DNA from: Blastocystis sp. Blastoise | Taxonomy: Eukaryota > Protista > Bigyra: Opalinata | NCBI GenBank assembly: GCA_039096225.1 | Contig: JBBPEB010000006.1 | Location: forward strand, 1,240,001-1,304,000 | Length of the DNA stretch: 64,000 nt | Direction: 5' to 3' | Shown: one piece after another, positions 51,786 through 58,990 of the stretch | How the letters are laid out: every line of letters starts with the position of its first letter | Position numbering within the stretch: position 1 is the first letter of the stretch | The notes under the pieces: generated by a model | Databases searched by the model: none | What the model was told of the DNA's origin: nothing | Seen by the model: the letters and a program-made list of their open reading frames with translations, nothing else | Program-made: the position numbers and the translations under genes

Positions 51786-52040
51786 TTATTTTTCTTTATT
51801 TAGGTGATATAAAAAGAATTTATTAACGTTTAATTGTTCAAGATCTAAATCTATATTATCATAATCAAAATTCCTATATATATATATAAAAGAAACTATT
51901 GTATATATACATTTTATTTATTTTTTTAATATTTTTTTGAAACATATTATATTCTTTGATAAATTGTTGAATCATTCCAAATATAAGAATTGCATTGTTA
52001 TTATCATAAGATTTATCACACTTTATATATAATATTTATT

Positions 52041-52100
<60 letters not shown>

Positions 52101-52508
52101 TTTTTTATATTGAACAATAATTTTTGATGTATTAATTTTAAATAATCTATATATATATATATATAGATAATTATATCAGAATAATTAAATATACTTTTTC
52201 ATTTGATTTATAATTTGATTAAGATATTTATCATTTCCATTTTCAAATTCAAAAAAAATATATATATTAATTGTAAGCGTTTTCTTTTTATCACCATTTG
52301 ATAATTTATTAATTATTAAATAATATCTATCTTTATTTCTATACAATAATAATAATAGTAATAATAATAATATTAATATATATATATATATATAGATTAA
52401 TACTTTAAATAGATTGTAAATATAAAAAATATTGGTGAATTGGAATTAAAATGAATCTGAATTTCATCAGATATATTATATAACTATATATATATTATTG
52501 TTAATAAT

Positions 52509-52543
<35 letters not shown>

Positions 52544-54830
52544 AGAATCATTAATAAAATCATTATAATTATAGTAGTTATGAATGAATAAATTTATATT
52601 ATTGGTTGTTACAATTTGGTTATAAACATTCAAATATAAATATATATCAAATAATTCACTTGGAAAAGATCCTTCATGTAAGAATGTATACTATATATAT
52701 TATATTATATTATATTATATTATATTATATTATATACATATTGTTTTTCATTAACTATTATCTCATTATCTATATATATATATATATATTATATTATATT
52801 ATATTATATAATACTAATTAGATTATATGTTTGTTTATTATTTATTTGTATAGGATCATTTTCATATTGACTATTTTGACTATTATTATAACAACTAGCT
52901 GTATATATATATATATATAAATATTATATTATTATATTATATACATTATATATATATATATTATATTATATTATATTATATATATATATACAAATATTAA
53001 TATTATCATTTGAATAATTTATAGATAAATTTGATGATTGATTATGAATTTCTTTGCTTATATCATTATTTTCAGATAATGAAGTATAATCATATACATC
53101 AGTAGGTATTATATTATCAGCATTAATATTATCAATATTATATTTAATAGATGATTGTATATTAGAATTATTAGCTGAAATTATATTAGCTGAAGATTGG
53201 TTATTATTTTGAATAACTTTAGATGCATATTCATTAGTATTTTGAAGTTTTTGGAAAGAAATATTATTACTATTACTAATTATTGGATTAGCCAAATTAT
53301 TATTGATATTATTTAATAAGATATTAGGAGATGAAGAAATTATATTATCATTACTACTAATTATTGGATTTAATGAATTATTGTAATTGATTGATGAATT
53401 AAGATAGTTATTATTATTTATTAATGGATTTGAAGAACTGTTATGATTAATGAATGAATTAGAAGAATTATTATTATTTTGATTATTAATATTGATTGAT
53501 GAATTAAGATAATTATTATTATTGATTGATGAATTAAGATTGTTGTTATTATTGATTGATGAACTAAGATAATTGATATTATTGATTGATGGATTAGAAG
53601 AATTGTTATAATTGATTGATGTACTAGATAAATTATGATTATTATTTACTATTGGATTAGATAAATTATGATTATTATTTGATATTGGATAAGAAGAATT
53701 GTTACAATTGATTGATGTATTAGATAAATTATGATTATTATTTGATATTGGATAAGAAGAATTGTTATAATTGATTGATGTATTAGATAAATTATGATTA
53801 TTAGTTGATATTGGATAAGAAGAATTGTTATAATTGATTGATGCATTAGATAAATTATGATTATTATTTACTATTGGATTAGATAAATTATGATTATTAT
53901 TTGATATTGGATAAGAAGAATTATTAATGAATGAATTAGAAGAATTATTATTATTTTGATTATTATTGTTGATTAATGGATTAGATAAATTATTTATTAT
54001 TTGCTTAGAAGAATTATCATTGATAGAATTATCACTATTGGAAATGATAGAAATATTAAACTGATCAATATCTTCAACAGAATTATGAATACTTGGAATT
54101 GGAGAATAATAATTATTTAATATATTATTATTATTTAGATTATATTGATTATTTAATGAATCATTTATACTATAATTATTATCATTGTTATTAGAATTAA
54201 ATGAAGGAAGAAGAAGAGGAGAAATAAGTTCTATACTTTTTTTATTTTCATCATCATTCATACTATTGAACTTTATAATGGGAGATATAATTATAGGAGA
54301 TATTTGTTGATCTGATAATTTAATATATTTATTTTCATTGTTACAATTATTTATTTTAGCACTATCTTTTGATTCCATCTATGGGATATATATGATAATA
54401 TGAATATACATGAATAATATGAATATGAATATATATGGATAATATGAATATGTATATGAATATGAATAATATGAATATGAATATGAATATGAATATGAAT
54501 ATGAATATGAATATGAATATGAATATGAATATGAATATGAATATGAATATGAATATGAATACATATGGATAATATGAATATACATGAATAATATGAATAT
54601 GAATATATATGGATAATATGAATATGAATATGAATATGAATATGAATATGAATATATATGGATAATATGAATATACATGAATAATATAAATAATATCGAT
54701 AATAAAAATAATATGGATAATATTGATAATATGAATACTTTAGATGATATATCTTCTTTTGATTCAATATAACGATTTATATCATAATTGAATGTACACT
54801 TTCTAACCAGTAATTCATATGAGCAAGTTA

Positions 54831-54892
<62 letters not shown>

Positions 54893-56644: not shown

Positions 56645-56947
56645 TTCTTAATTCTTGAATTGTATTTAATGATTCTTCATTATTTTTATTTTTCTTAATT
56701 ATCTAGAATTATTATATTTATTAAATGTATATACATATAATATATATATAGATACATATCCTAATTGCAGATATATATAGGTTTGAAGATCCAAATCTTT
56801 TACAAGTAGTGGGTTAGTAATAATCTATAAATTAAAATTAAAATAAATATGATTATTATTTAAATATATACATGTTTAGTATAGTTTGTATCCGAGTTCA
56901 AAATTAAATTACACAAATTATTCATAAAATCCTGTATATATATATTA

Positions 56948-57007
<60 letters not shown>

Positions 57008-57374
57008 GATTTTAAATATACTTCATTATCATCAAGATTTATTTTGTATTGCTTCAAAAAATTATATATTTCTGATCTTATCTATTGAGTATATATATAT
57101 ATAAATCAAAAAATATTATTTTAAAATATATTTATACTTCTTCATCTATTTCATTATTATTCTTAATTATATTTTGAATATCTATATATCGTATGAATTA
57201 TAATAATAATAATGCATTTAATATATAAACAATTATTACTTGATAATGTATATAGAAATGTTTTGAGTTCTTCTGAACTTATTAGAATTTCTTCATCATC
57301 TTCTTCTTCATTATTTTTAATTGCTAGTGGTATATAGTCTATTTTATTCTTATTTGATATAATTTTCCCATTAT

Positions 57375-57460
<86 letters not shown>

Positions 57461-58328
57461 GTGAGTCTATATCAATTACATTATCTTGAATTTCGTCATT
57501 ATTCTTGTTAGAATTGAATTTATAAGATTGATTATTATTTATCTTAATAGAATCATATTCTTTATTATCTATAGATTTCTTTTTTATTTTTATATTTTTA
57601 TGTAGAATCGGTGAAAGAAATGATGCTTCAATAGGAAATTCATGACAAGCAGGTAATTGTTTATTTGTAGAATTGCGATTACATTGATTATTTAAATTAT
57701 TATTAGATATAGAAGATTTAATAGAATTATTAGAAATTAATATAGGTGGAGAAGGAGATGAATGAAAATTATTGATAGATGAATTATTATTATGATTATT
57801 ATTAAAAATTGATATAGGTGGAGAAGGAAATGAATGAAATTTATTGATAGATAAATCATTATTATTATTATTAGAAATTGATATAGGTGGAGATAGAGAT
57901 GAATGAGATTTATTGATAGATGAATTATGATTATGATTATTATTAAAAATTGATATAGGTGGAGAAGGAGATGTATGAAATTGATTAATAGATGAATTAT
58001 TATTATTATGATTATTATTAAAAATTGATATAGGTGGAGAAGGAGATGATATAGAAGATGGAGATGAATTAAATTTATTGATACATGAATTATTATTATT
58101 ATGATTATTATTAAAAATTGATATAGGTGGAGAAGGAGATGAATGAAAATTATTGATAGATGAATTATTATTATGATTATTATTAAAAATTGATATAGGT
58201 GGAGAAGGAGATGATATAGAAGGAGATGAATTAAATTGAATAGAATGAATAGAAGGAGATGAATGAAAATTATTGATAGATGAATTATTATTACGATTAG
58301 GGTTAGGGTTAGGGAAAAAAAAATATAA
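51786..58328 (-). CDS. Spliced tyrosine recombinase (lambda-integrase fold) protein with Asn/Ser repeat regions; candidate Crypton-like transposase
   Basis: Box I YLLQTCTGCPLRNNDIYNLK (R at ~55680) and HTGSKNG (K). After intron 55270-55347, Box II DHSGYSYRHCFATW...RSCHHTNDVHDKYY (H-x-x-R position read as YSYR, then H and Y nucleophile). About 20 exons join in phase to TAA 51786. First in-frame ATG is only at 56925; the acceptor near 54800-54835 is ambiguous. Confidence 0.8.
53395..53975 (-). repeat. In-frame ~60-bp tandem repeat (NNHNLSNTSINYNNSSYPIS) in the recombinase gene
   Basis: Visible in the 470-aa ORF 52966-54378 and in DNA (GATATTGGATAAGAAGAATT recurring). Confidence 0.9.
54400..54740. 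repeat. (GAATAT)n hexamer satellite inside an intron of the recombinase gene
   Basis: Long ATGAAT runs with higher-order GGATAATATGAATATACATGAATA units, bounded by GT at ~54738 and AG at 54379. Confidence 0.9.
57735..58295 (-). repeat. In-frame ~63-bp tandem repeat (SSINNFHSSPSPPISIFNNNH) x ~8 in the first exon of the recombinase gene
   Basis: ATAGGTGGAGAAGGAGATG recurs with ~60-80 bp spacing on the plus strand; the frame stays open throughout. Confidence 0.9.
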
Positions 58329-58990
58329 TTAGAGAGTAAGTTAATTAATGTTATAAAAATATATTATATTATAAATATAATTGGATAAAAAAAGATATTA
58401 TTGATTTAATTGGTAGTCTAGAATTCTAGAATTCTAGAATCTAGGATTGTAGAATTGTAGAATGAAATAAACCAATAGAATGAATTAAAAAAAATGTGAA
58501 ATAAAATTGTATTAGGGTAAAAAAGTGAATAAAAATAGTATTAGGGTAAAAAAATGGTTGAAAAAAGTGGTAATGTTTTAAAAGAAGTGTTCTGAAAATT
58601 TTATTAGGGTGAAAATAATTAATTTAATTGGTTAAAATGAATAGAATAAAATAATTGGGTATTGTAGAATTGTAGAAAAATAAAATAATTGGATAATAAA
58701 AGATATATTAAATATAATTGGTAGTCTAGAATTCTAGAATTCTAGAATCTAGGATTGTAGAATTGTAGAGTATAAAATATAAGATAATGAATTTGATTGG
58801 TAGTGTAGGATTCTAGAATTCTAGATTCTGGAATTGTAGAATTGTAGGATAATGAAAATGATTGGTAGTTTACAATTCTAGAATTCCAGAATCTAGAATT
58901 GTAGAATTGTAGGATGAAATAAGCCAATAGAATGAATTAAAATAAAAAAGTCAACCAAAATGTTATTAGGGTAAAAAAGTGGTTGACCTT
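58297..58990. repeat. Structured repeat block: (TTAGGG)3, four ATTAGGGT boxes, and four ~55-bp ATTGGTAG(TCTAGAAT/TGTAGAAT)n units
   Basis: TTAGGG at 58297-58314 (x3), 58512, 58541, 58604 and 58966. Units start at 58409, 58717, 58796 and 58861. Confidence 0.9.

Follow-up and report, generated by a model that had tools for sequence, protein, structure and literature searches.

Cryptons are described as elements without terminal inverted repeats (TIRs) or long direct repeats but with direct repeats of 4-6 bp at both termini, and the model proposed for them is one of excision as a circle followed by re-insertion (PMC3212892); their boundaries are hard to define (PMC3212892), and their mobility is still a tentative model (PMC13465315). 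Several groups bear on the locus described here. CryptonS and the oomycete element CryptonF-2_PS live in stramenopile hosts and encode a tyrosine recombinase (YR) with no reverse transcriptase (RT), DDE transposase or polymerase (PMC3212892); C48 peptidases accompany some CryptonS and oomycete CryptonF recombinases (Kojima and Jurka 2011, PMC3212892, sections 6 and 7), and CryptonS have a conserved C-terminal region and termini that are mostly TATGG (PMC3212892). CryptonV, cnidarian by the cited title, comprises YR-only DNA transposons of which some families are microsatellite-specific, a precedent for simple-repeat targeting (PMC8869645), and Glomhopper/CryptonA elements with DUF3504 exist as intron-rich YR copies, with up to about 20 introns and many of them truncated (PMC13465315). 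ResT and TelN belong to the same enzyme superfamily. Yeast Y' elements and Drosophila HeT-A/TART form tandem subtelomeric units beside telomere repeats, with 5'-truncated copies and exchange between chromosome ends, and encode a helicase or an RT, not a recombinase. Here we describe a predicted YR gene and the repeat block upstream of it in a 64,000-nucleotide stretch of Blastocystis sp. Blastoise (contig JBBPEB010000006.1, positions 1,240,001 to 1,304,000; hereafter the window). The window holds a 5'-truncated copy of a young, multicopy family which, with a probability of roughly 0.55, is a Crypton-like family of DNA elements concentrated near chromosome ends.

In this DNA, of about 20% GC and with TA-rich GT-AG introns, a minus-strand gene of 20 exons and 19 introns keeps its frame open from 58,298 to a stop codon at 51,786. 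Its first ten exons (58,298-54,906) are stop-free and encode 944 amino acids (aa). Removal of the introns 54,905-54,799 and 54,738-54,379 can fuse this part in frame with nine more exons, into a predicted protein of ~1,700 aa padded with repeats; a separate second gene starting from the ATG at 54,378 fits equally well. The (ATTCAT)n intron or spacer at 54,738-54,379 has 360 nt, and the gene's other introns 37-107 nt. The parts of the gene, all on the minus strand, are as follows.

57,459-58,298, minus: truncated first exon, rich in Asn, Ser and Pro, with seven copies of a ~72-nt repeat and no ATG
57,378-57,240, 57,181-57,138, 57,081-57,022, 56,931-56,872, 56,824-56,756, 56,702-56,643 and 56,596-56,280, minus: seven exons
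55,348-56,226, minus: YR exon 1, helical in its N-terminal part and carrying Box I (TGCPLRNND) and the Lys loop (GSKNG)
55,270-55,347, minus: intron between the Box I/K loop exon and Box II, 78 nt, GT-AG
54,906-55,269, minus: YR exon 2, with Box II (YxxRH), a His pair and a Tyr pair as candidate nucleophile
54,379-54,905, minus: linker, made of intron 54,905-54,799, a 60-nt exon and the 360-nt (ATTCAT)n intron, or else an intergenic gap before the ATG at 54,378
52,691-54,378, minus: Asn/Ser-rich spacer exons with 30-33-nt repeats
51,786-52,690, minus: six exons encoding a domain of ~205 aa that resembles Ulp1/C48 peptidases by ESM Atlas, ending at the stop codon at 51,786

Splicing 56,226-55,348 to 55,269-54,906 gives an open frame of 414 aa that spans 56,226-54,906, and the intron removed (55,347-55,270), which begins GTATAC, ends TATAG and is TA-rich, contains in-frame stops. 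The resulting join of Box I to Box II is found in all five NCBI protein models. The 292-codon exon is longer than chance allows, the longest open reading frame (ORF) in 2,000 shuffles being 124 aa. An earlier annotation made by a model from the letters alone (the sequence-only reading) had proposed this splice from 55,348 to 55,269, some 20 in-phase exons, repeat padding and a structured upstream block, and all of these are present. It had also entertained an intact element, which the window copy is not: it is 5'-truncated at a telomere repeat and lacks a start codon together with ~156 N-terminal residues present in its paralogues, its earliest in-frame Met lying at 56,925. Two short exons of the 57,378-56,280 group are left out of the NCBI models.

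The encoded core is very probably a tyrosine recombinase, as the sequence-only reading had supposed, a view for which its ordered motifs and its ESM Atlas features argue. The Arg of TGCPLR is encoded at 55,682-80, the Lys of GSKNG at 55,580-78, and the Tyr and Arg of YSYRH, in a Box II that runs YSYRHCFATW, at 55,214-12 and 55,205-03, followed by CHH at 55,127-22 and DKYY at 55,100-095; in P0001, one of the paralogues introduced below, the corresponding residues are R818, K852, Y948xxR951, H977/978 and Y986/987. Their spacing is near that read from the records of lambda Int, Cre and TelN, with small insertions: R to Y measures 35-36 where lambda Int and Cre have 31-32, and His to Tyr measures 9. 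The ordered six-residue pattern occurred in 0 of 20,000 shuffles, although it had been composed after inspection of the query and only 15 of 80 reference integrases match it. When residues 755-1000 of P0001 were compared with the ESM Atlas, 18 of 30 matches were unnamed viral or bacterial clusters (0.96-0.97; the best, at 0.97, mostly Preplasmiviricota), 11 were PF00589 clusters (0.96) and one was ResT/TelK (0.94); scores of at least 0.95 arise in ~1 of 100 shuffled proteins, a rate that covers whole proteins and not protein parts, and the taxon labels rest on few cluster members. AlphaFold models built from the single sequence, without an alignment, reached a pLDDT of 36 (398 aa) and 41 (201 aa), and Foldseek and VIA returned no meaningful match for the latter, a model too poor to bear on the fold. 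Pairwise BLAST of the query against lambda Int gave no match; scans with lambda Int and Cre yielded near-identical copies, which were kept out of the profiles. The reference integrase set was seeded from L005, one of two motif-picked viral loci, the second of which (L004) proved not to be an integrase and was dropped.

A search with the exon-1 protein among proteins of 512-2,000 aa (2,395 candidates) gave five matches, all of them hypothetical proteins of Blastocystis sp. Blastoise (WA158_006854, 006855, 006557, 006559 and 003003), whose clusters total 13 member sequences. These paralogues, labelled P0001-P0005 and setting a lower bound on the copy number, lie on at least three contigs (1,317,030, 1,048,365 and 1,380,664 bp). 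They are 100% identical to the window over exon 1 (BLASTP, rounded) and 99.3-99.6% identical over the 451-aa core; there, 0-3 residues separate the six versions, the sixth being the window copy, which is distinct from the five NCBI proteins. The family is therefore young and multicopy rather than a single-copy host gene. The C-terminal domain occurs as two haplotypes about 5-8% apart (P0004 being compared over 80 residues only), and since the core allele T/I211 is paired with both of them (P0001, P0003, P0004, P0005), recombination between copies is implied.

Outside this family no relative came to light. A phmmer search of 1,835,955,588 representatives, which alone covered relatives of 421-511 aa and of more than 2,000 aa, found only P0003 and no orthologue from human Blastocystis subtypes; there were none among proteins of 132-420 aa or in metagenome and viral contigs, a single phage match being due to chance. 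The literature searched, which left most subscription papers and Repbase outside, held no paper describing this recombinase family and, on Blastocystis tyrosine recombinases generally, only the adintovirus paper. The family may be undescribed, as had been suggested. The main text of the genome paper mentions neither integrase nor recombinase (PMC10690189); its supplement file 7 credits strain Rus-B (= Blastoise) with 36 genes bearing IPR011010 and IPR013762. Two other tortoise isolates, with more fragmented assemblies (229 and 258 scaffolds), have 6/5 and 7/6 IPR011010/IPR013762 genes and human subtypes 0-4 (PMC10690189). The same file gives 10 Rus-B genes with IPR002104, which may represent other integrase families, and 38 IPR011010 genes in Cafeteria burkhardae.

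Upstream, the truncated gene abuts telomere-like DNA, a junction and link to telomeres that had not been noticed before. The features concerned, with a candidate for the opposite end, are these.

58,943-58,992, minus: outer hairpin, with 14-bp inverted arms (1 mismatch) and a 22-nt spacer containing ACCCTAA; DNA fold -8.5 kcal/mol
58,324-58,942, minus: repeat block upstream of the gene, with 4-5 units built from CTACAATT/CTAGAATT octamers set between ATTGG and CCAAT, and with T-run-ACCCTAA motifs
58,297-58,323, minus: T9-(CCCTAA)3 junction, the 5'-truncation point of the gene, entering at codon 157 of full-length P0003
51,705-51,713, minus: GTTGACTTT, a sequence shared with the arm of the outer hairpin (58,955) and occurring four times in the window, both strands counted

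The block includes a palindrome at 58,810-58,907 with ~40-bp arms, and the 151-nt stretch there folds at -25.5 kcal/mol. Over the 720 bp of block and junction, TTAGGG occurs seven times, on one strand only (0.07 expected), against six times in the other 63,280 bp; TTAGGG is given as the telomere repeat of Blastocystis ST1 (PMC5608401), and CCCTAA as that of B. hominis (PMC8287931). The block may be the element's own 5' end, brought up to the gene by an internal deletion, or it may be subtelomeric DNA that became attached when a broken end healed. The outer hairpin at 58,992-58,943 is a candidate left end or recombination site, atypical in its 22-nt spacer because typical YR sites have a spacer of 6-8 bp between arms of 11-13 bp (PMC3212892). 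The 9-bp direct match between 58,955 and 51,713 makes GTTGACTTT at 51,705-51,713 a weak candidate for the right end. Neither long terminal repeats (LTRs) in the 44-64 kb part of the window nor an Rfam family in its 46-64 kb part was found, and the block motif was absent from metagenome contigs. The octamer block was also considered as a heat-shock element, and rejected for its unfit spacing.

The locus tags of the paralogues point in the same direction. Tags 006557 and 006559 are assigned to contigs of different size, which would put each of them no more than two genes away from a contig boundary. Tags 006854 and 006855 lie 295-296 tags beyond 006559 on the 1.317-Mb contig, and 006559-006855 makes 297 tags, against ~338 genes expected. 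This indirectly suggests copies close to the two ends of one contig and to one end of another, provided that name and contig size come from the same cluster member and that the tags are numbered sequentially.

RNA evidence consists of contigs of run X1, assumed to be RNA, over 54,906-56,226, and such contigs report presence only. They show a spliced transcript of the opposite strand, another feature beyond those of the sequence-only reading.

54,909-56,090, plus: antisense spliced RNA, with introns 55,030-55,091, 55,412-55,540, 55,588-55,643, 55,735-55,836 and 55,950-56,028, and an inferred intron 55,232-55,341

The main X1 contig skips AT-rich segments with plus-strand GT..AG at four of the five listed joints and GT..AA at the fifth, a further joint in the repeat-skipped intron region not figuring among them; the sixth intron, 55,232-55,341, is implied by the lengths of the pieces, and the sense splice is excluded for that contig. 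Stops interrupt each of the three plus frames of the 644-nt product, which, with its plus-strand joints, marks it as antisense and non-coding; a true gene on the plus strand was rejected for the same stops. Its source is a near-identical copy of the window locus. Two listed differences between this contig and the window, and a third read off a loose end, are all synonymous in the YR frame, an outcome expected of 18% of random changes; this is a small sign that the frame is under selection. Runs X2 and X3 gave no contig for the locus, which is not proof of absence. From 47,300 to 51,700 on the plus strand, a decayed gene with stops and plus-strand introns reaches the 3' end of the YR gene and is a possible source of antisense transcripts.

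The C-terminal ~205 residues, whose character is likewise new with respect to the sequence-only reading, resemble Ulp1/C48 peptidases. They had been likened to Ulp1 by eye, and in the ESM Atlas PF02902 accounts for 24 of 30 matches (0.94, 176 shared features), among C48-like matches that include one Nucleocytoviricota cluster. Pfam and PDB gave no match, and no relatives of the domain were found among proteins of 30-986 aa. By a comparison with the Ulp1 motif, again by eye, the catalytic His and Cys appear to be lost and the peptidase is probably dead.

Set beside the described systems, this resemblance is the best link to a named group. The family and CryptonS/CryptonF-2_PS (PMC3212892) are alike in their stramenopile hosts, in a YR unaccompanied by RT, DDE transposase or polymerase, in a second module of C48/Ulp1 type, to judge in Blastoise from the ESM Atlas resemblance, and in the lack of visible TIRs or LTRs. 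The family differs from them in having no detectable sequence similarity and no GCR1_C, the CryptonF hallmark (no Pfam family at E<=1 in the five full-length proteins); in a C48 domain that is annotated as fused and is apparently catalytically dead; and in its ~1,700-aa repeat-padded protein, 19 introns and association with telomere repeats. Its telomere targeting, itself inferred, would parallel the microsatellite preference of CryptonV. Glomhopper/CryptonA shares the wealth of introns and the truncation, whereas the five full-length Blastoise proteins have no DUF3504 match and the cores are >99% identical. With ResT and TelN the family shares the superfamily, with ResT also the Tyr at the position of the first His, and it has a palindromic neighbour; it is, however, eukaryotic and intron-rich, with no PF16684 match and no hairpin end shown. 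It is like Y' elements and HeT-A/TART in its telomere-repeat neighbourhood, 5' truncation and probable exchange between ends, and unlike them in encoding a recombinase. Hallmarks of DIRS, Ngaro or VIPER (RT-RNase H, inverted terminal repeats or split direct repeats) are absent from the window, as are a capsid, packaging ATPase, replication gene or TIRs of Polinton-like viruses or virophages; Starships are fungal elements with a DUF3435 captain and cargo, and the present stramenopile gene has no DUF3435 match. Pfam, whose sensitivity on short AT-rich exons is limited, found no RT, DDE transposase or polymerase among the 41 window ORFs or the five full-length proteins. Similar copies exist at several loci, as expected of Cryptons (five protein clusters on at least three contigs, plus the window variant). 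The family probably works like a Crypton, a likeness that falls short of placing it within Crypton or CryptonS.

Of the earlier interpretation, then, the probable YR, the young multicopy family, the Crypton-like content (a YR as the sole transposition enzyme, now with a C48-like domain, and no RT, DDE, polymerase or capsid gene among the 41 ORFs) and the lack of relatives have held, while the intact copy has not. Several observations weigh against our interpretation. Pfam returned 0 families at E<=10 for the recombinase core, PF00589, PF16684 and DUF3435 included, and sequence searches of PHROGs, NCBIfam and PDB with the core gave only noise. Box I carries a two-residue insertion. A profile of 80 bacterial integrases scored the query at 11.4 bits, against 3.6 for the best of 1,000 shuffles, but through RHxFATW, the very motif used to choose the profile family; its Box I part did not align with TGCPLR and its tail part scored nothing. 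The 36 Rus-B genes may or may not include this family: 10 genes of that strain carry IPR002104, and the query has no Pfam integrase match. The X1 contigs contain neither sense RNA nor the 55,348/55,269 sense splice, a rare sense mRNA being still possible. At least 5.7 kb of non-telomeric DNA lies beyond the telomere repeats of the window copy, and the placement of other copies at contig ends carries the double assumption given above.

The most serious competitor, which we nevertheless regard as unlikely, is a domesticated or stranded recombinase-derived gene, itself immobile and multiplied by subtelomeric duplication and gene conversion. Near-identity, mosaic haplotypes, the adjacent tags 006854/006855, 19 host-style introns and decayed flanks are all typical of such a history, and differences that are synonymous only are equally compatible with a host function. 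Against this, the 1.84 billion representatives hold no orthologue, not even from human subtypes, and runs X2 and X3, which carry the same organism label, gave no contig for the locus, with the caveat already noted; the full catalytic set is retained, unlike in domesticated DUF3504 genes (PMC3212892), and a structured block with an att-like hairpin adjoins the gene. That the gene is no recombinase at all, but a multicopy subtelomeric protein of another kind with chance motifs, would agree with profile and fold tests that were every one negative or without clear outcome. It is nonetheless very improbable given the rarity of high ESM Atlas scores among shuffled proteins (about 1/100 at >=0.95, for whole proteins), the ordered six-residue pattern never met in the 20,000 shuffles, even if composed after inspection of the query, and a C48-like domain of the kind that is a known companion of stramenopile Cryptons.

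A viral origin, in which the stranded and intronised integrase of a Polinton-like virus or virophage spread within larger viral or subtelomeric blocks, is improbable too. The two best ESM Atlas clusters are viral, the commonest label being Preplasmiviricota, and a Nucleocytoviricota cluster is among the C48-like matches; such viruses are known in Blastocystis (PMC8502044) and lie near telomeres in another stramenopile (bioRxiv 10.64898/2026.07.28.741278). However, the atlas taxa are based on few members, the 41 window ORFs include no capsid, ATPase or polymerase, no viral-contig relative was found, and the GC content equals that of the host. Least probable of all is a telomere resolvase-like activity: the enzyme would cut the palindromic block and close it into hairpins, giving a linear element its ends or the chromosome a back-up end. 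The R-K-Y-R-H-Y pentad recalls Borrelia ResT (K..Y293-R296-H324-Y335, from its record), one ESM Atlas match is ResT/TelK, and a long palindrome lies beside telomere repeats; but Tyr at the first-His position, tried as a resolvase marker, was ruled out as one, since 57 of the 76 reference integrases that were scored, themselves chosen for the motif, have it too and TelN has Lys; PF16684 is not matched, and Blastocystis is credited with telomerase genes (PMC5608401).

If the Crypton-like reading is correct, the recombinase (R818-K852-Y948xxR951-H977/978-Y986/987 in P0001) would bind short inverted arms such as those of the 58,992-58,943 hairpin, and the unit would be excised as a circle and re-inserted where a short core is shared, following the published model (PMC3212892). 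With ACCCTAA in its spacer, the hairpin would steer insertion towards telomeric or telomere-like repeats, in parallel with the microsatellite preference of CryptonV families (PMC8869645), and so produce tandem subtelomeric copies, which could then swap segments. The start of the window copy would have been removed either by a deletion or when a broken end was healed by a telomere, with the whole catalytic core kept behind an internal Met, and antisense transcription may hold the family largely repressed. A bolder version, which we put forward only tentatively, is a telomere-homing YR element: its hairpin att site would have a telomere hexamer in the spacer, its circles would enter tracts of TTAGGG, leaving tandem subtelomeric arrays at the ends of many chromosomes, and spliced antisense RNA would restrain it.

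The flanks of the recombinase gene look decayed, in agreement with the dead-gene surroundings described in the sequence-only reading: a script that recovered the recombinase gene found no spliced ORF of more than 136 aa in 46.4-51.8 kb or 59-64 kb. At 61,000-62,600, the minus strand shows TA-rich segments that look like GT-AG introns, and the plus strand a broken, coding-like Lys/Glu-rich frame. Farther away, an intronless 509-aa ORF at 44,769-46,298 (plus) carries a TLDc domain (PF07534, E 1e-25) in a region otherwise rich in introns, and perfect 48-bp terminal inverted repeats at 35,966-38,106 enclose 2.1 kb resembling a miniature inverted-repeat transposable element, with no ORF of at least 95 aa and no obvious target-site duplication. 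A very large multi-exon gene at ~18,300-33,300 (minus), with many Cys-rich CxDGxC repeats, beta-rich exons upstream and no Pfam family, likely encodes a surface protein; an 862-aa low-complexity Ser/Asn-rich ORF at 15,293-17,881 (minus) is possibly its last exon. Two ORFs at 13,807-14,582 (plus) have weak, sub-cut-off matches to Glyco_transf_61.

In summary, a protein currently annotated as hypothetical, with no relative outside its own family in 1.84 billion representatives, is very probably a recombinase. With cores >99% identical, a cultured host and a near-chromosome-scale assembly, its ends, target site and circles are directly testable. Because target specificity is rare in eukaryotic DNA transposons (PMC8869645), a recombinase that homes to telomeres would put the enzyme to a new use. 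A telomere-homing YR element, if real, would stand beside telomeric retroelements and Y' elements as their counterpart based on a DNA recombinase, and in a protist that can be grown in culture.

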